DNA of 64,000 nucleotides from Centroscyllium fabricii (lineage: Eukaryota), in NCBI GenBank assembly GCA_051313645.2, contig JBNRSN020000002.1, positions 516,832,001 through 516,896,000 on the forward strand. Direction: 5' to 3'. A program made the translations under genes and the position numbers. The notes below the pieces were generated by a model, which searched no databases, was not told the origin of the DNA, and worked only from the letters and a program-made list of their open reading frames with translations. The stretch's first letter is position 1, and the number at the start of each line of letters is the position of its first letter. Positions 1-33,438 of the stretch are shown piece by piece.

Positions 1-157
1 TAACTCCTCCCCTCAGGTGAGTGCCTTATAGGTGTGATCTGACCTGCCCCCATTCATTCTGCACTCGATGTTCGACCGGAGCGTAGCTCCGTTGTAAAGC
101 GAATAAAAGCCTATAGTTAAGGTAACTACTCGTCTTTGATTCATTGACGATACGTCA
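1..157 (+). mobile_element. 3' part of the 5' LTR of a Ty3/Gypsy retrotransposon (LTR start lies outside the window)
   Basis: TATA-like TTATA at 26-30, AATAAA at 102-107, plausible LTR end ...TACGTCA at 157, gag ATG at 181. The end is inferred because no second LTR is available for comparison. Confidence 0.65.
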
Positions 158-180
158 ATTTTATTCGCTTTAAAATTAAA

Positions 181-3100
181 ATGGAGAGCGGCGCTGTGAA
201 ACCCGAAAAGTTGGACATCAGTCCACAGGACCCAGCCGCCGCCAATACATTTGAACATTGGTTCAGCCTCGTCGAGGCCTACATGGAGGCCGCCAAGGCG
301 ACAACCGACGGGAACAAACTCCACGTTCTCACATCTAGGATCTCCAGCCGGGTATACTCCTTCATCCGCGACGCTAAAATGTATGGAGAAGCCGTGGAGA
401 AACTGAAGGCATGCTACGTGCACCCGGTCCACTCGGTCTACGCCAGACACATGCTGGCGACCAGACAACAACAAATTGGTGAATCCAATGAACAGTACCT
501 GCTGGCGCTCCAAGCCCTCGCCCGGGCCTGTGACTGCAAGGCACGGACGGCGCAGGAGGAGGCGAATCTCCTCGTCCGGGACGCCTACTTGACGGGGATC
601 AGGTCCGCCCAGGCCCGCCAGCGGCTGCTGGAGAAAGAGACACTGTCGATGGATGAGGCGATCTCCATCTCCAACGCGGTGGATAGAGCACGCCGCAGAC
701 TAGAGGCATATGGCGGCCAAGGCCCACAAGCCACCTTCAACCCCTGGGCGGCCCCACGACAGGGCAAGACCCCCACAACGGCAGCGGCAGCTGTGAAGAC
801 GTCGGAGGATAAAAAATGTTATTTCTGCGGCCAGGGACTACACCCGCGAGCGAAATGCCCCGCGAGGACCACGACCTGCGAGAAATGTAGAAAAACGGGA
901 CATTACGCCAGGGCCTGCAAATCGGCCCCAGCGCCTAACTCCAGACACAACAGCACGGCCTGCGAGAGCTCCAAAGCCGGCCCTTGGCCTCAGGTAAGCT
1001 GCAGTTGCAGCGCGACCCAGCAACGGTCTGGGGGTAGAGTACAAGCGCCCCCGTCTCCCACCCTGATACGGCAGAGGCCGGCCGCACACACGGCACGCCA
1101 AACTCGGCCACGGCTGGCCATGTGCGACCCCCCAATGCCGGCATCTCGCCCAGCGCAGCCCGCTGCGTGCGAATCATGGGCGCCACCGCGGCCCGCTGCG
1201 TGCGAACCACGGGCACCGCCACCGCATCCACAGCGGCCCGCTGCGTGCGAATCACGGGTGCTGCCATCTTGTCCTCAGCGGCCAGCCATGTGCGACCCCC
1301 CGGCGCCGCCATCTTGTCTTCAGCGGCCAGCCATGTGCGACGCCCCGGCGTCGCCATCTTGTCCACCGCGGTCGGCCATGTACGAATCACGGGCGCCGCC
1401 ATCTTGTGCACGGCCCCGGCTAGCGGAGGGCTCCCACACACACACACACACTTCGGCCTCAGCCACGGTCGACCAGGCTAGGCCGCACACCCTATCAAAT
1501 TCCATGATGAGGATTAAAGTCAACGGCCATACCACCAACTGCCTGTTCGACACCGGAAGCACAGAGAGCTTCATTCATCCCGACACAGTGCGGCGCTACG
1601 GACTGCAGACCCTGCCCACGCACTACCAAATCTCCCTTGCTTCAAAGTCCCACACGGCGGACGTCACCGGCTACTGCTCCGTCACGCTCACAGTCAGGGA
1701 CTGCGTGTACCGTAATTTTAAATTGTACATACTCCAGCAGTTGTGCGCCCCAGTCTTACTGGGACTGGATTTCCAGTGCCACCTGAAGAGCGTGACAATG
1801 GAGTTCGGCGGGACCCTGGCCCCCCTCACCGTCAGTAGCCGGGACAATCCCTTCCTAAAGCAGAGCCCGACTTGCGGCCTTTCCACCCTGAAAGTCGACC
1901 CCCCCTCGCTGTTCGCCAACCTCGACCCAAACTGCAAACCCATTGCTACTAAGAGTCGGCGTTACAGTGAAGGGGATCGGACATTTATCAGGTCGGAAGT
2001 CGGGCGTATGCTGCAGGAGGGGATAATTGAAGCCAGCACCAGCCCCTGGCGGGCCCAGGTCGTACTGGTTAAGACTGGCGAGAAACTGCGGATGGTGATC
2101 GACTGCAGCCAGACCATTAACCGCTACAGCGGGCTCGACGCCTACCCCCTTCCCCGCATCTCGGAAATGGTTAACCAGATCGCCCAGTGCAAGGTGTTCT
2201 CCACAATCGACCTTAAGTCGGCGTATCACCAACTCCCGATCCGGAAAGCCGACCGCCCGTACACCGCGTTCGAGGCGAACGGTCGGCTTTACCACTTCCT
2301 CCGGGTCCCCTTCGGCGTGACCAACGGAGTGTCGTTATTCCAGAGGGAGATGGACTGTATGGTTGACCACAACAGGTTGCAGGCCACTTTCCCCTACCTG
2401 GACAATGTGACCATCTGCGGCCATGATCAGCAGGACCACGATGCCAACCTGGCCAAATTTCTCCACACGGCGAAAAGGCTCGACCTCACGTACAATAAAG
2501 ACAAGTGCGTCTTTAGTACAGATCGGCTCGCCATCCTCGGATATGTAGCGGAAAACGGGGTCCTTGGCCCCGACCCACAGCGTATGCGTCCCTTACAGGA
2601 ACTGCCCCTACCTCACAACCCCAAGGCCCTGAAGAGATGTCTGGGATTTTTCTCTTATTACGCGCAATGGGTTCCCCAGTTCGCGGATAAGGCCAGACCG
2701 CTCCTCAGGGCTGCAGTCTTCCCCCTCTCGGTAGAAGCCCAAACAGCGTTCGCCCTGATTAAGGAAGACATTATCAAGGCGACCATGCACGCCGTTGATG
2801 AGTCCATCCCTTTCCAGGAGGAGAGCGACGCTTCGGACTTTGCCCTAGCCGCCACCCTGAATCAGGCAGGCAGGCCCGTAGCATTTTTCTCCCGCACCCT
2901 ACAGGGACCCAAAACTCGCCACTCTGCAGTGGAAAAGGAGGCCCAGGCCATCGTGGAGGCCATGCGCTACTGGCGTCATTACCTGGCCGGTAAGCGTTTT
3001 ACCCTGCTCACTGACCAACGGTCGGTCGCGTTTATGTTCAACAATAAACAAAAGGGTAAAATCAAGAATGATAAGATCCTGCGGTGGCGGATCGAACTCT

Positions 3101-3214
3101 TGACTTACGAGTACGACATTCTTTACCGACCAGTCAAACTCAATGAACCCCCGGACGCACTGTCCAGGGGAACGTGCGCCAGTGCCCAGCTAGACCGGCT
3201 GAAGGAACTCCACG
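181..3214 (+). CDS. gag-pol: Ty3/Gypsy gag-pol polyprotein (Gag, protease, RT, RNase H), truncated by the assembly gap before integrase
   Basis: Uninterrupted ORF. Two CCHC knuckles (CYFCGQGLHPRAKC, CEKCRKTGHYARAC), protease LFDTGS, RT motifs SPW, IDLKSAYHQ, PFGVTNG, YLDN, RNase H SDAS..EKEA..TDQ. Confidence 0.95.
1108..1410 (+). repeat. In-frame 45-bp tandem repeat (about 7 degenerate units, 15-aa Pro/Cys-rich) between Gag knuckles and protease
   Basis: Units start at 1186, 1231, 1276, 1321, 1366 (e.g. QRPAMCDPPAPPSCL, QRPAMCDAPASPSCP), with looser units from 1108. Confidence 0.9.
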
Positions 3215-3414
3215 NNNNNNNNNNNNNNNNNNNNNNNNNNNNNNNNNNNNNNNNNNNNNNNNNNNNNNNNNNNNNNNNNNNNNNNNNNNNNNNNNNNNNN
3301 NNNNNNNNNNNNNNNNNNNNNNNNNNNNNNNNNNNNNNNNNNNNNNNNNNNNNNNNNNNNNNNNNNNNNNNNNNNNNNNNNNNNNNNNNNNNNNNNNNNN
3401 NNNNNNNNNNNNNN
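3215..3414. other. Assembly gap (200 N)
   Basis: Run of exactly 200 N; round size suggests a scaffolding gap of unknown true length. Confidence 0.99.
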
Positions 3415-4275: not shown

Positions 4276-4996
4276 TGCCCTAGTTTCACTGGAGGCTACG
4301 AATTCCCGAATCGTGCCGATTGTGAAATTTGGCCGATTCGTGGGTCATTCTTGCAATTCGTAGTGGATTCGTAGTAGATTCGTAGTGGATTCGTAGCGGA
4401 ATCGTAGAGTTCGCGGGAGTTCGGCGGGAGTTCTTTTAGTTTTAAAGAAAGTTTTTGTTTGTCAAAAAATTTCGTAGGAGGGTTCCCGATTTTCCAATTC
4501 GTGATAGATTCGTAAACAATTCGTGACCCATTCTTACCGTTCGTGACCCTTTCTTACCGTTCGTAACTGATTCGTAGTGGATTCGTGGTGCATTCTTGAC
4601 TATTCTTGGGCATTCTTGATTTTTTCAAAATCAGGAATGCACCACGAATGCACCACGAATGCACCACGATTGTCCACGAATGCACTACGAATGCAATTCG
4701 TAGATAATTCGTAGCTAATTCGTAGAATTCGTAACTAATTCGTGGAGTTCGTAGTGGATTCTTAATTAATTCTTGCAATTCGTGGTGGATTCGTGAGTGA
4801 TTCGTACCTCATTCGTAAAATAATTCGTGATAGATTCGTAACCTTGTCCAGAATCGCCAAGAATTCACCAAGAATCGCCAAGAATCCACCAAGATTTTTC
4901 GCATTTCTTGCAGAATCCCCAAGAATCGCCAAGATTTTCGATTCTTGACGATTCTTGGGATACTTGGCATTCTTAGCCTCCAGTGAAACTAGGGCA
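4276..4996. mobile_element. PIF/Harbinger non-autonomous element (MITE)
   Basis: 23-bp perfect TIR TGCCCTAGTTTCACTGGAGGCTA (4276-4298 / 4974-4996), TAA TSD (4273-4275, 4997-4999), no coding capacity. Confidence 0.92.
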
Positions 4997-25881: not shown

Positions 25882-26130
25882 TGATGTGCCTTCAATAACT
25901 ACAAAACGAGAAGTTATAGACTTAAACAGAGGCTTTTAATCACTATGAATTGGAGCTCACATCTCGTCGGGCCGGCTGCCTCGCAGGAATGAGTCATACA
26001 AAACTTGGGTTCTTTATGTAAGCGGAGCCAAAGCCAATTCCTGGAATCTCCCAGGTTTAGTCAGGAAATAGGAAGTGAAACTATACACAGTGGGGGAGGA
26101 CAATATGTACAGCCAACAGATTTCATTACA
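25882..26130 (-). mobile_element. Solo LTR
   Basis: TG...CA termini, AAACC TSD (25877-25881, 26131-26135), ATTAAA on - strand near 25935. Confidence 0.8.
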
Positions 26131-29009: not shown

Positions 29010-29239
29010 TGTAGCGCCGGCAGGCCTAGGAACCACACGTGAGCCAGAGCTTTATTACACTAAGTCAAAACAAGAAAGAGAGTGAACCACTCGAGACAGG
29101 CATATTTAAACGGTCCCGCGGTTGGTGACGTCATCGCGTCGGCCGACGTGGTGACGTCGTCGCGTCACCCGGATGAGCGGGGCTTTGCTCCGCGGAGTCC
29201 CCGTGGCGGATTCGATGTCCCAGTGGGCGTGCCGCCACA
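29010..29239 (-). repeat. 3' LTR (230 bp)
   Basis: TG...CA; direct repeat of 33196-33438; contains TGACGTCA, - strand TATA-like TTTAAATA and AATAAA. Confidence 0.95.
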
Positions 29240-29281
29240 CAGCTCCCCCCAGAATCCGTCCGGGAGGAATAGTGACAGTGT

Positions 29282-29925
29282 CTATGTATGCCGTTGGGGT
29301 GGCCGGATAATGCGGCCGGACCGTGTTGCTTGTAGCCTCTGGTTCTGCGGTGGAGTGTGGGCGGGTTTTGTTGCGGGAGGGCGACCGCGTTGTGGTGGTT
29401 GTGCGGGGACCGTAGTCTCGCCCGCTATCACGTGTGCCGGCTTGAGCCGGTCTATTGTCACAGTGTCAGTCCTGCTGCCCATTTGTAACTCGAAAGCTTT
29501 AGCTCCCGCCCGAAGCACTCTGTAGGGGCCATCGTAAGGTGGCTGTAGTGGAGATCGGTGTCCGTCGCGCCGGACGAACACGAATTTCGCATTTTTAATG
29601 TTGTCAGGTACCCGAGCTGCCGGCTCTCCATGCCGGGCCACTGGTAGTGGCTGGAAAGCTCGTGCCGGGTTGGCGAAATCTTTTAAATACTGCTCGGCTG
29701 ACCAGGGAGCGTTGGGCTCAGCCAGGAACTCGCCCGGCACCGTTAAAGTTTGGCCGTAGATGAGCTCCGCTGCCGAGGTGTTGAGGTCTTCTTTGACTGC
29801 CGAGCGCAGCCCAAGGAGGACCCATGGAAGGCGGTCGGTCCACGATGCGTCTTTCAGTGTGGCCCGTAGTGATGCCTTCATCGAGCGGTGGAACCGTTCG
29901 CATAGGCTGTTCGCCTGTGGGTGGT
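29282..29925 (-). pseudogene. pol: Integrase C-terminal half, frameshifted relative to the main ORF
   Basis: [16 protein letters not shown] (E of DDE), W...LPWVLLGLRS, GPY/F module PYDGPYRV, VTIDRLKPA. Confidence 0.9.
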
Positions 29926-32900
29926 TCGGTGTAGTGTCACCCCGAGGTCGCGGGTGATGGCCGCCCATAATGCCGACGTAAATTGGGGTCCTCTGTCGGA
30001 GGTGATGTCTGTGGGCACGCCGAAGCGGGCGACCCAGGTGGCGATGAACGCCCTGGCCAAGTCCGTGGTGCCGGTGGCGGTGAGGGAGACTGCTTCTGGC
30101 CAGCGAGTGTTGCGGTCGACCATGGTCATTAGGTGCGTGTGGCCCCGGGATGGCGGTAGTGGCCCGACGAGATCGATGTGGACATGGTCAAAACGCCTGG
30201 CCGGTACTTTAAAATTTTCCAGCGGTGCCCTGATGTGCTTATGCACTTTGGAGCGCTGGCAGGCTATGCAGGAGCTGGCCCAGGCGCGGACGTCCTTGCG
30301 CAGGCCGCGCCATACGAATCGGGCCGATATTAACTTAATGGACGCGCGGGTGCCGGGGTGGGACAGGTCATGGAGGGTCCTAAATATATGTTGCCTCCAA
30401 GCGTGGGGCACGACTGGCCTGGGTTGCGGTAAGGATACGTCGCAGCAGACGACGGTGGCAGCGGGGCCGTGCGCGATATTGGCCAAGTGGAGGCCGGGGA
30501 GATTAGTTGCTGCGTTGAGTGGGTCGGCCAGCTGGTCAGCGGCCAGCTGGGCGTAATCGACCGCCATTTGGGCGGCGTTAATGGTGGGGCGTGAGAGGCA
30601 GTCAGCGACCACGTTGTCGCGGCCGGAAATGTGCTGGATGTCGGTTGTAAATTCCGACACGGCCGCGAGTTGGCGCTGCTGCCTGGCCGACCAGGGTTCA
30701 GCGACCTTAGCCATCGCAAACGTGTGTGGCTTGTGGTCGCTGAAGGCTGTAAAGTGGCGGCCCTCCAAGAGGAAACGAAAATGTCGCACCGCCAGATGGA
30801 GAGCGAGTAGCTCCCTATCAAAGGCGCTGTATTTAACCTCTGGGGGTCGGAGTTGCCGGCTGAAAAAGGCCAGGGGCTGCCACGAGTTGCCGGTCCACTG
30901 CTCAAATACGGCCCCGACCGCATGGTCGGAGGCGTCGGTGGTGAGGGCTACTCTGGCGTTGGGCCTAGGGTGGGCTAGGAGGGTGGCGTTTGCCAGGGCG
31001 GTTTTAGTTGCGGTGAAGGCGGTGTCGGCGTCGGCCGTCCACTCAACCGCAGCCTTATTGGACTGCCCGCGGGTGGCCTGGTATAAGGGGGCCATGAGAG
31101 CGGCTGCTCCCGGGATAAAGCGGTTATAAAAATTAACCATGCCTAAGAATTCCTGCAGCCCTTTAATGGAGTGCGGGCGGGGGAATTCTTGTACCGCCTG
31201 CACCTTAGAGGGCAGGGGTATGGCCCCTGTTTGGGAAATGCGGTGGCCGAGGAAGTCAATGGTCTCGAGGCCGAATTTACATTTAGTGGGGCTTAAGATA
31301 AGGCCGTGTTCGGTAAGGCGTTGGAACAGGGTCCTGAGGTGCAGGAGGTGTTCCTGGGGGGAGGTGCTGGCCACGAGGATGTCGTCTAAATAGACGAAGA
31401 TGAACTTCAAGTCCCGTAGGACCGAGTACATGAGGCGCTGGAAGGCCTGGGCCGCGTTTTTAAGGCCGAAGGGCATCCTAAGGAACTCGAAGAGTCCGAA
31501 GGGGGTAATGACGGCCGTTTTAGGAATGTCCGCCGGGTGCACCGGAACCTGGTGGTAGCCACGCACCAGGTCGATCTTAGAAAAGATCGTACAACCCGCT
31601 AATCTGGCGGAAAAATCCTGGATGTGGGGTACGGGGTACCTATCCGGGGTGGTGGCGTTGTTAAGGCGGCGGTAGTCGCCGCAGGGGCGCCAGCCTCCGT
31701 CGGGCTTGGGGGCTATGTGGAGCGGAGAGGACCAGGGGCTGCTGGAGCGGCGGATAATGCCGAGTTGTTCCATAGTGCGGAACTCGGTGCGCGCGATCTC
31801 CTGCTTGGCCGGGTCGAGCCTACGGGCGTGGGCATGGACTGGCGGGCCTGTGGTAGTTATAAAATGTTCCACCCCGTGTTTGGCCTTGCGGGCGGTGAAC
31901 GTGGGGTTGGTTAGGGCGGGGAACTCTGCCAGGAGCGTGCCGTAGGCATCGGAGTCCCTGGAGCGGCATTGGGCTGCCGCGTGAGCCAGGAGTGCGGGCC
32001 CTGTGGAGCATGGGATGGTCGTCATGGTATTTATATTTACCAAGCGGCGCCGAGTTACATCGACCAGTAGGCCGTAGGCGCAGAGGAAGTCTGCCCCGAG
32101 GAGGGGGGAAGTGACCTGGGCCGTTACAAAATCCCAGGTGTACGCGTGGCTTGCAAGGGTTATAGTTAGCTTGCAGGTGCCGTACGTTTTTATGTTGGAG
32201 CCGTTGGCTGCCGCTAGTGGCGGGCCCTGGGTACCTCGTTTGGTTTCTGCAGGGGAGGCTGGCACGATGCTGTGCGGCACGATGCTGTGCTGCGCGCCTG
32301 TGTCGCAGAGGAACCTGAGGCCTGTGCCGCTGTCTGTGGCGAAGAGCAGTGCTCCTGTGTGGCCTACAGACATGGTGGGAGCTGAGTTGGGCCGTGGCTT
32401 GAACGCGCATGGCTGGACGCAGCGGTGCGCTTTGTGTTCGAACCGCGTGTGGTAGTAGCACCAGCTGGTGCTAGAGGGACGCGGTTGTCTAGGCGGGCGC
32501 GGGGCCCTAGGTTCAGGCGTAAAGTTAGGCCTGGGGGGTGATTGGCTGCGCTCTACCGATGCGGAGTTGGGGTCGCACGTGGTTGAGTGGGTACGCTGCG
32601 CCTCCATGAGCCTGTCGGCCTCCTCTCCGAGCTCGTCATCGCTCCGGTGGCCAAGGGCCGCCAAGGCCGGTCTGATGGCGCGGGGCAGTTTAAGGAGGAA
32701 GACGGTGCGGAAGAGGGAGGCCAAGTTGGGTGTGAGCGCTTGCATCTGACCTAAGAGGTCCGATGGGTCTGTGTCCCCGAGTTCGGGGAGGTCGAGGAGC
32801 TGGCAGTCGCGCTCGAATTGGGAGGGGGTAAATTTTTTGATAAGCGCGGCCTTAAGCGTTTCATACCTGCCTGCGACGGGCACGCGCTGTATTTTTGACC

Positions 32901-33108
32901 ACATCCGATCAATCGTCGTCTGTGGTAGGGCTGAGAACACCAGGTCGTAGCGGTCGTCCCCTTGGATGCCATGTGTGCGGCAGCTGGCCTCAATGCAGAC
33001 GAACCAGGCCGCTGGCCGTTGCTCCCAGAACTCGGGTAGAGTTAGTCCACGTCCGGCGTTCTGTCCAGCTCCTTGCGTTCGTGGAGCTTGGTTTCTTGGG
33101 TTTACCAT
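29878..33108 (-). CDS. gag-pol: Gag-Pol polyprotein (Gag, PR, RT, RNase H, integrase N-half)
   Basis: LPEFW..PAAWF Gag N-terminus, CHCC motif CYYH-x9-C-x3-C, LCDTGA, YLDD, TDAS, HHCC, HIDLVGP, SDRG; first ATG downstream of the PBS at 33108. Confidence 0.93.
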
Positions 33109-33195
33109 GTTTTCTGATAAAAGTCTTTGGCTGGTGGTCCCAGATCCTGCGGCAGCTTTTCTTCTCTGGAAGTCGTTCCAGTTTGGGGTCACCAC

Positions 33196-33438
33196 TGTAG
33201 CGCCGGCAGGCCTAGGAACCACACGTGAGCCAGAGCTAGAGAAAACACAGCTTTATTACACTGTCAAAACAAGAAAGAGAGTGAACCACTCGAGACAGGC
33301 ATATTTAAACGGTCCCGCGGTTGGTGACGTCATCGCGTCGGCCGACGTGGTGACGTCGTCGCGTCACCCGGATGAGCGGGGCTTTGCTCCGTGGAGTCCC
33401 CATGGCGGATTCGATGCCCCAGTGGGCGTGCCGCCACA
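33196..33438 (-). repeat. 5' LTR (243 bp)
   Basis: TG...CA; adjacent to the PBS. Confidence 0.95.

Follow-up and report, generated by a model that had tools for sequence, protein, structure and literature searches.

The element and its leader

How does a Gypsy retrotransposon begin reverse transcription if the DNA next to its 5′ long terminal repeat (LTR) offers no tRNA-type primer-binding site (PBS)? The question is raised by an element at the left edge of the window, by which is meant the whole 64,000-nucleotide stretch of Centroscyllium fabricii DNA that was analysed. The LTR of this element ends in CA at 156-157 and the ATG of its open reading frame is at 181. The 23 nt that separate them contain no TGG, as the preliminary description of the sequence had stated. 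The PBS position is occupied by the complement of a segment of the LTR itself. The relevant features are as follows.

1..157, forward strand: 3′ portion of the 5′ LTR, which starts upstream of the window and ends in CA (placed from a solo LTR, family contigs and two-LTR relatives)
78..90, forward strand: inverted repeat GGAGC/GCTCC, which lies upstream of the arm and is probably at the transcript's edge or not part of it
95..108, forward strand: LTR arm, the predicted self-primer, with AATAAA inside it at 102-107 (primer role suggested by conservation and covariation)
between 108 and 109, forward strand: predicted cleavage point
109..123, forward strand: GCCT/AGGT hairpin that begins at the first base past the arm (predicted fold and relatives)
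143..159, forward strand: inverted repeat at the U5 end, predicted to form part of the time
158, forward strand: spacer, one unpaired base between the LTR end and the PBS, A in 23 of 27 families
159..172, forward strand: PBS position, exact complement of 95-108, without TGG (sequence and relatives)
181..3213, forward strand: gag-protease-reverse transcriptase (RT)-RNase H in one frame, open until an assembly gap (Pfam)
817..918, forward strand: two CCHC zinc knuckles of Gag (sequence)
2395..2406, forward strand: RT catalytic box YLDN, which aligns with YLDD of the Ty3 RT
25882..26130, reverse strand: solo LTR of a related family, 249 bp, TG...CA, with a GGTTT target duplication; the arm motif is present and no complement follows its CA

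The element is interrupted by a gap of N residues at 3215-3414. Its 3′ half is missing, and a search of the window beyond the gap found neither an integrase nor a 3′ LTR that belongs to it. The Pfam order gag-PR-RT-RH-IN (from the window and relatives, the window copy being cut before IN), the TG...CA LTRs and target duplications of 5 bp are those of Ty3/Gypsy elements, and the Ty3 RT is the best solved match to the RT of the element. Over RT-RNase H, proteins of Scyliorhinus, Hypanus, Narcine and Mobula are the closest, at 72-81% identity. Five degenerate 45-bp repeats are found at 1105-1407 in the C-terminal region of Gag, where they encode a Pro/Cys-rich repeat ahead of the protease.

The preliminary description reported that 159-172 is the exact complement of the AATAAA-bearing segment 95-108, and this is confirmed. 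The two are exact reverse complements over 14 bp, and extension is blocked both inward (G109/A158) and outward (G94/A173). A perfect 14-bp inverted repeat was not obtained in any of 3000 dinucleotide shuffles of positions 1-180; the best was 13 bp, seen once. The stem dominates the predicted fold, which has a z score of -3.41.

Three minor hairpins had also been proposed, at 78-90, 114-128 and 143-159. All three inverted repeats are present, but two of the three are not the favoured fold. The TAGTTA/TAACTA pairing at 114-128 has a predicted probability of about 0.18, against 0.6-0.7 for the pairing of GCCT (109-112) with AGGT (120-123). The latter is also kept in relatives, and 114-128 was rejected as a conserved inner hairpin. 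The 78-90 hairpin is predicted at about 0.3 or less. The 143-159 repeat, a candidate for a U5-IR-like stem next to the PBS, is predicted at about 0.25-0.46, and stems on the U5 side are variable among relatives.

The LTR boundary

The reading of 159-172 as a PBS depends on the end of the LTR, and three lines of evidence agree that it ends at CA157. The solo LTR at 26130-25882 (reverse strand) aligns its terminal CA with CA157 and is then followed by flanking DNA, not by a complement. The alignment score is 58, compared with a best of 32 among 860 other tiles; one of 300 random windows tied, and it is with that locus excluded that none of the 860 tiles exceeds 32. Family contigs come from four organisms, and in one run three of them depart from the reference at 157; their sequences past this point do not agree with one another (agreement 0.52).

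Two LTRs with a 5-bp target duplication are present in 13 related loci, which represent 12 insertions and four families, and the LTRs of these relatives are 152-220 bp long. In all 13, the 5′ LTR ends in CA and is followed by one spacer base and then the complement, with one mismatch at pair 2 in L008 and L009. This evidence is drawn from loci other than L011, L021, L056, L083, L085, L055, L070 and L077, in which the LTR end was misplaced or missed. An alternative boundary that would expose a TGG site is rejected by the solo LTR, the family contigs and the relatives with target duplications. The boundary first proposed is upheld by the family copies, and a normal tRNA PBS does not come to light.

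Conservation of the stem in related families

Relatives were collected with an alignment of 30 proteins as query. The loci surveyed are the best 80 of 497 metagenome loci together with five from genome bins, the latter evidently eukaryotic contaminants; viral contigs that were searched contain no relatives. Among these 85 loci, 32 are without a gag start and three have too little upstream DNA. The remaining 50 and the window copy were analysed, and clustering of gag DNA at 80% identity sorts them into 29 families, with representatives chosen by id and not by pairing. The bins that hold L083-L085 and L082 (G002-G004) are nominally bacterial, each with over 100 RT matches that include many eukaryotic LTR retrotransposons, which is a sign of heavy contamination with animal DNA.

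Counted from CA+1, 27 of the 29 families form 11 or more of 12 Watson-Crick pairs, and 21 families form all 12. Two families fail, L033 with 8/12 and L039 with 9/12. The identical search reached the 11-pair level at none of 218 internal sites and in none of 284 shuffled leaders. TGG does not follow the LTR in any of the 29 families. As a control, other Gypsy elements with a clean pair of LTRs at least 90% identical were taken (14 from 23 rows examined, the second Gypsy element of the window included). TGG is present within 10 nt in 13 of these 14, and none has more than 10/12 self-pairs. One control element, L118 (1282-1510), has LTRs that are 99.5% identical and neither TGG nor a self-complement past the called LTR end, which may reflect a wrongly placed boundary or an unusual mode of priming.

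The geometry of the stem is also conserved. On its inner side the duplex has a fixed edge one base past CA; on its outer side the edge is ragged, and the pairing is mostly 12-18 bp. The 3′ end of the arm faces the LTR end at a distance of 20-86 nt, depending on the family. Directly past the arm, a G or A followed by CC is found in 22 of 27 families, and a stem of at least 4 bp begins at this hairpin position in 16 of 27. In L021 (150-253) the LTR end and PBS are tandemly doubled, which gives the arm two possible partners.

The 27 stem-bearing families have 27 different arm 12-mers. An arm forms on average 11.8 pairs per 12 with its own PBS and 7.7 with that of another family, and none of 702 cross-family comparisons is perfect. 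These numbers bear on a rival explanation, in which a fragment of a host tRNA or another small RNA primes at 158-175 and the complementarity to the LTR is incidental. Anticodon-loop priming exists in other LTR elements (available text of PMC10886601). Such a primer is nevertheless most improbable here, since all 27 PBS sequences are different, and each matches the LTR of its own element and varies together with it, even among members of a family. An Rfam search of positions 1-260 also gave no match near threshold, only one chance match with an E value of 4.6. ARAGORN found no tRNA within the 64-kb window.

Covariation of the two arms

The preliminary description had proposed looking in relatives for covariation of the 95-108/159-172 stem, and it is found in the families that keep the complementarity. 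Both partners vary in 12 of 13 pairs (82 cells), a value that is equalled in none of 500 shuffles and exceeds all slid registers; as the alignment consists of the 27 stem-positive rows only, the percentage of paired positions is inflated. G-U pairs are nearly absent from the main stem (1 of 324 cells) but account for 10 of the 16 pairs that close the neighbouring hairpin.

Matched changes are also seen between close copies. L010, whose identity to its family is 99.2%, carries a single arm change in each of its LTRs, and its PBS has changed to match. L032 and L054, which are 93% identical, differ by a matched pair. In L008, an arm change is present in both LTRs and the PBS is still the old one, which is the predicted intermediate. 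In the family contigs of the four organisms, the change G101>T and the change C166>A of its partner are found at 47%/60%, 61%/71%, 66%/51% and 100%/48% of depth. By depth arithmetic, one family contig carries both of these changes and in addition a one-base loss at 96 with T171>A, which amounts to the loss of one A-T pair. Unmatched single changes are found in L009, L018, L061, L083 and L084, as is expected from decay after insertion.

Copying of the primer into the PBS would be expected to produce both the near absence of G-U pairs and the matched changes between 99%-identical copies. The stem thus looks copied from the primer rather than co-adapted, although the events are few. A strict requirement for a duplex could also account for the low number of G-U pairs.

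The poly(A) signal

The preliminary description suggested that the pairing masks the 5′ poly(A) signal and leaves the 3′ signal free. For the window copy this is plausible. The hexamer is 0-11% unpaired in the predicted fold with the leader present, compared with 53-93% in the LTR alone, and the complement lies outside the LTR, so the signal of the 3′ LTR would stay free. Arms end in AATAAA in 10 of 27 families and in ATTAAA in 8, and these 18 families would suit a more radical reading in which the stem does nothing but mask the 5′ signal, as in an HIV-like hairpin, and the true primer is elsewhere. That reading is unlikely. Nine of the 27 arms have no canonical hexamer; L020 and L044 have nothing hexamer-like and yet form 15 and 12 perfect pairs, respectively. 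Masking requires neither a register fixed one base past CA nor a near-zero content of G-U pairs, and it would leave an element whose relatives are all without TGG with no primer site.

As nine stem-bearing families have neither AATAAA nor ATTAAA in the arm, masking cannot be the reason why the stem exists. It is likely a side benefit or by-product of the pairing, at most a secondary function and not the core one.

A model for self-priming

The sequence at 159-172 is likely the partner of a Tf1-like self-primer that replaces the host tRNA, and the comparative data extend this reading to the whole lineage. That the stem serves in priming and is not a mere hairpin is indicated by its fixed register and polarity, the lack of any other PBS candidate and its copied look. 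The original suggestion that the element primes itself from its own R region has gained strong comparative support: the complement is lineage-wide, in fixed register and covarying, and TGG sites are lacking throughout.

The following course of events is proposed. Transcription would start at the arm or slightly upstream of it, at about 95-98, and the arm would fold back onto 159-172. The RNA would then be cut after base 108, at the junction with the GCCT/AGGT hairpin, probably by the RNase H of the element as in Tf1. From the 3′ end released by the cut, RT would copy through A158 and into the end of the LTR, and the resulting strong-stop DNA would measure about 50 nt, or as little as 21-24 nt in L062 and L031. 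With a cut at this point, the 5′ hexamer would leave with the primer, and the strong-stop DNA would have, for its jump to the 3′ LTR, nothing but the short segment that runs from the hexamer to the poly(A) site. That segment corresponds to the conserved hairpin, and 109-123 is thus likely the effective R for the first strand transfer. Plus-strand synthesis would copy the primer and rewrite the PBS, so that the PBS follows changes in the arm. Both new LTRs would inherit the arm, and the copying of the primer into the PBS is what replication of the Tf1 type predicts.

The start of transcription may be approached from the sequence upstream of the predicted cut. Conservation begins about 14 bases before it, with G at -10 in 25 of 27 families. 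Position counts in the 27 families gave no TATA box at a fixed distance upstream of the arm, and a conserved TATA box was rejected as a candidate. The upstream pattern resembles the initiator TCAKTY that is quoted in the accessible portion of PMC3601003. An initiator of this kind would place +1 about 11 bases before the cut and give an 11-nt primer like that of Tf1. Pairing is longer than 11 bases (13-18) in most families, and the start may therefore be further upstream or variable.

In a variant of this model the primer is the other copy of the arm, which lies in the 3′ LTR of either the same RNA or one packaged with it and would be cut just past the hexamer. The two copies of the arm are identical and equally complementary to the PBS, the arm is located at the poly(A) signal, where 3′-end processing occurs, and covariation and copy-through would look alike in both cases. 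The variant is nonetheless very unlikely: no more than 20-86 nt separate the 5′ copy from the PBS, this copy would fold first, and use of the 3′ copy would remove the acceptor for strand transfer. We know of no precedent for priming by a 3′ LTR arm.

Phylogenetic position and reverse transcriptase

The stem-bearing elements form one clade (support 100/100). Its SH-aLRT value is 100 with 16 outgroups and it is on a branch of 1.9 substitutions per site, in trees that did not contain a Tf1/sushi reference and in which long branches meet around the sister position of the lineage. The clade also takes in named proteins of a nematode, a coral, an anemone and a psyllid, which are placed there by their protein sequences. 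The outgroups are taken by us to be Mag-like, CsRN1-like and Gmr1-like on the basis of PBS and domain order. Mag elements have two knuckles, and Mag-lineage and other compact animal Gypsy clades (MolGy/PolGy included) resemble the present lineage in short LTRs, a single frame and marine invertebrate or fish hosts. The Mag-like, CsRN1-like and Gmr1-like elements differ in that they have TGG sites, and their identity to the query over RT-RNase H is 27-33%. The stem lineage, separate from them in the RT tree and without a tRNA PBS, does not belong to any of the three.

A chromodomain or SH3_Tf2-1 domain was detected in none of 30 lineage proteins at E ≤ 0.01, and the integrase core was detected in 29. 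In the three closest long relatives, the protein ends in a Pro-rich tail. A search for the chromodomain in three contaminated assemblies gave no match, and the control there gave none either. Two CCHC knuckles are present in 70 of 82 long lineage proteins. The characterization of the element as a Gypsy with two knuckles that is not a chromovirus holds for domain content; its placement in the tree is relative to references other than Tf1/sushi. The ESM Atlas has only generic RT names for the lineage, and motif searches in the supplements of papers matched no clade name. The best reading of the sequence data is that this is a deeply separate animal Gypsy lineage without a chromodomain.

The RT of the lineage has an unusual catalytic box. 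Of 121 lineage proteins, 93 have YxDN and 25 YxDD, with three unread, and the YxDN group includes young elements, many of them with near-identical LTRs (98-100%). In Ty1, the equivalent substitution, D211N, leaves polymerase activity but lowers kpol 223-fold and abolishes transposition, which is partly suppressed by mutations in RNase H (PMC2148107, as excerpted). The stem does not depend on YxDN, as L032, L035 and L038 combine YxDD with a perfect stem.

Comparison with known elements

The closest parallels are Tf1/Tf2 of Schizosaccharomyces pombe, Tj1 and the Tf1/sushi and Tcn1 chromoviruses, in which, as in the present lineage, the PBS position can pair with part of the 5′ LTR and there is no tRNA site. 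Self-priming by Tf1 is the precedent (PMC7175516, PMC4600332, PMC5341516, from the text available), and Tf1 cDNA carries the PBS as a 3′ single strand (accessible text of PMC11042837). The lineage differs from Tf1/sushi and Tcn1 in having no chromodomain or SH3_Tf2-1 domain (30 of 30 proteins), two CCHC knuckles and an RT that is mostly YxDN; in Tcn1 the chromodomain is reported in 100% of elements (excerpt of PMC6317226). It also differs from the Tf1 group in its pairing of mostly 12-18 bp and in an arm that usually holds the poly(A) hexamer and is 20-86 nt from the LTR end.

Self-priming has also been predicted for TAR (Houba/Osr-1) elements of Ty1/copia, from a complement of at least 10 bp located 0-5 bp past the 5′ LTR, which 89% of TAR elements have (PMC6317226, same excerpt). 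This rule, used for plant Tcn1 and TAR, describes the present lineage as well; the window copy has 14 bp at +1. TAR elements, in contrast, are of another superfamily, with the copia domain order, and are found in plants. The dictyostelid Skipper has neither TGG nor an LTR complement (available part of PMC5006619), and the lineage differs from it in having the complement.

HIV-1 likewise has AATAAA in a stem close to the start of its RNA, but there the hairpin is within R and the primer is a tRNA. Here, the partner strand is the PBS and lies outside the LTR.

The priming of this lineage is not described in the accessible portions of PMC6238403, PMC8556966, PMC6934838, PMC10886601, PMC7472051, PMC5443660 and PMC9873768. 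A literature search found no paper on self-priming in the lineage or on YLDN RTs; most subscription journals and the Repbase notes were outside its reach and may record it.

Significance

The mechanism as such is known. What is new is that it occurs in this lineage and draws its primer from the poly(A) segment, together with a genomic sign of primer copy-through and the YxDN RT. To our knowledge, self-priming is proven only in the fission-yeast Tf1 and is predicted for chromovirus relatives and for one plant copia lineage.

A wider proposal, plausible but somewhat doubtful as a whole, is that a large, deep-branching animal lineage, whose named relatives come from sharks and rays, corals, anemones, a nematode and an insect, evolved tRNA-free self-priming independently of Tf1/sushi. 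The poly(A) segment would be its primer, so that a single duplex both primes and removes the 5′ poly(A) signal; its RT would be a natural YxDN enzyme; and its PBS would be rewritten in each cycle, in a manner readable in the genome copies. If a whole animal Gypsy lineage without a chromodomain primes itself, independence from tRNA either arose again or is ancestral and more widely kept. Lineage-wide self-priming would then bear on the question, described as open in the accessible part of PMC3601003, of whether hairpin priming preceded tRNA priming.

Such elements would also offer no tRNA-complementary site to silencing by tRNA fragments. The lineage supplies natural variants of the stem by the dozen, strong-stop DNAs of very small size and a polymerase that is YxDN by nature, and with these the rules of cleavage and the role of the third catalytic aspartate become directly testable.

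Other repeats in the window

The second Gypsy element of the window, at 29010-33438 on the reverse strand, is unrelated to the first and is the one that served as a control. It has two LTRs that are about 92% alike and an ordinary TGG PBS, and its frame ends inside the integrase. By its features it is presumably CsRN1-like. At 4324-4830 there is a degenerate array of 11-bp repeats that is followed by a tract of 10-11-bp repeats, and a similar stretch pairs as inverted repeats.
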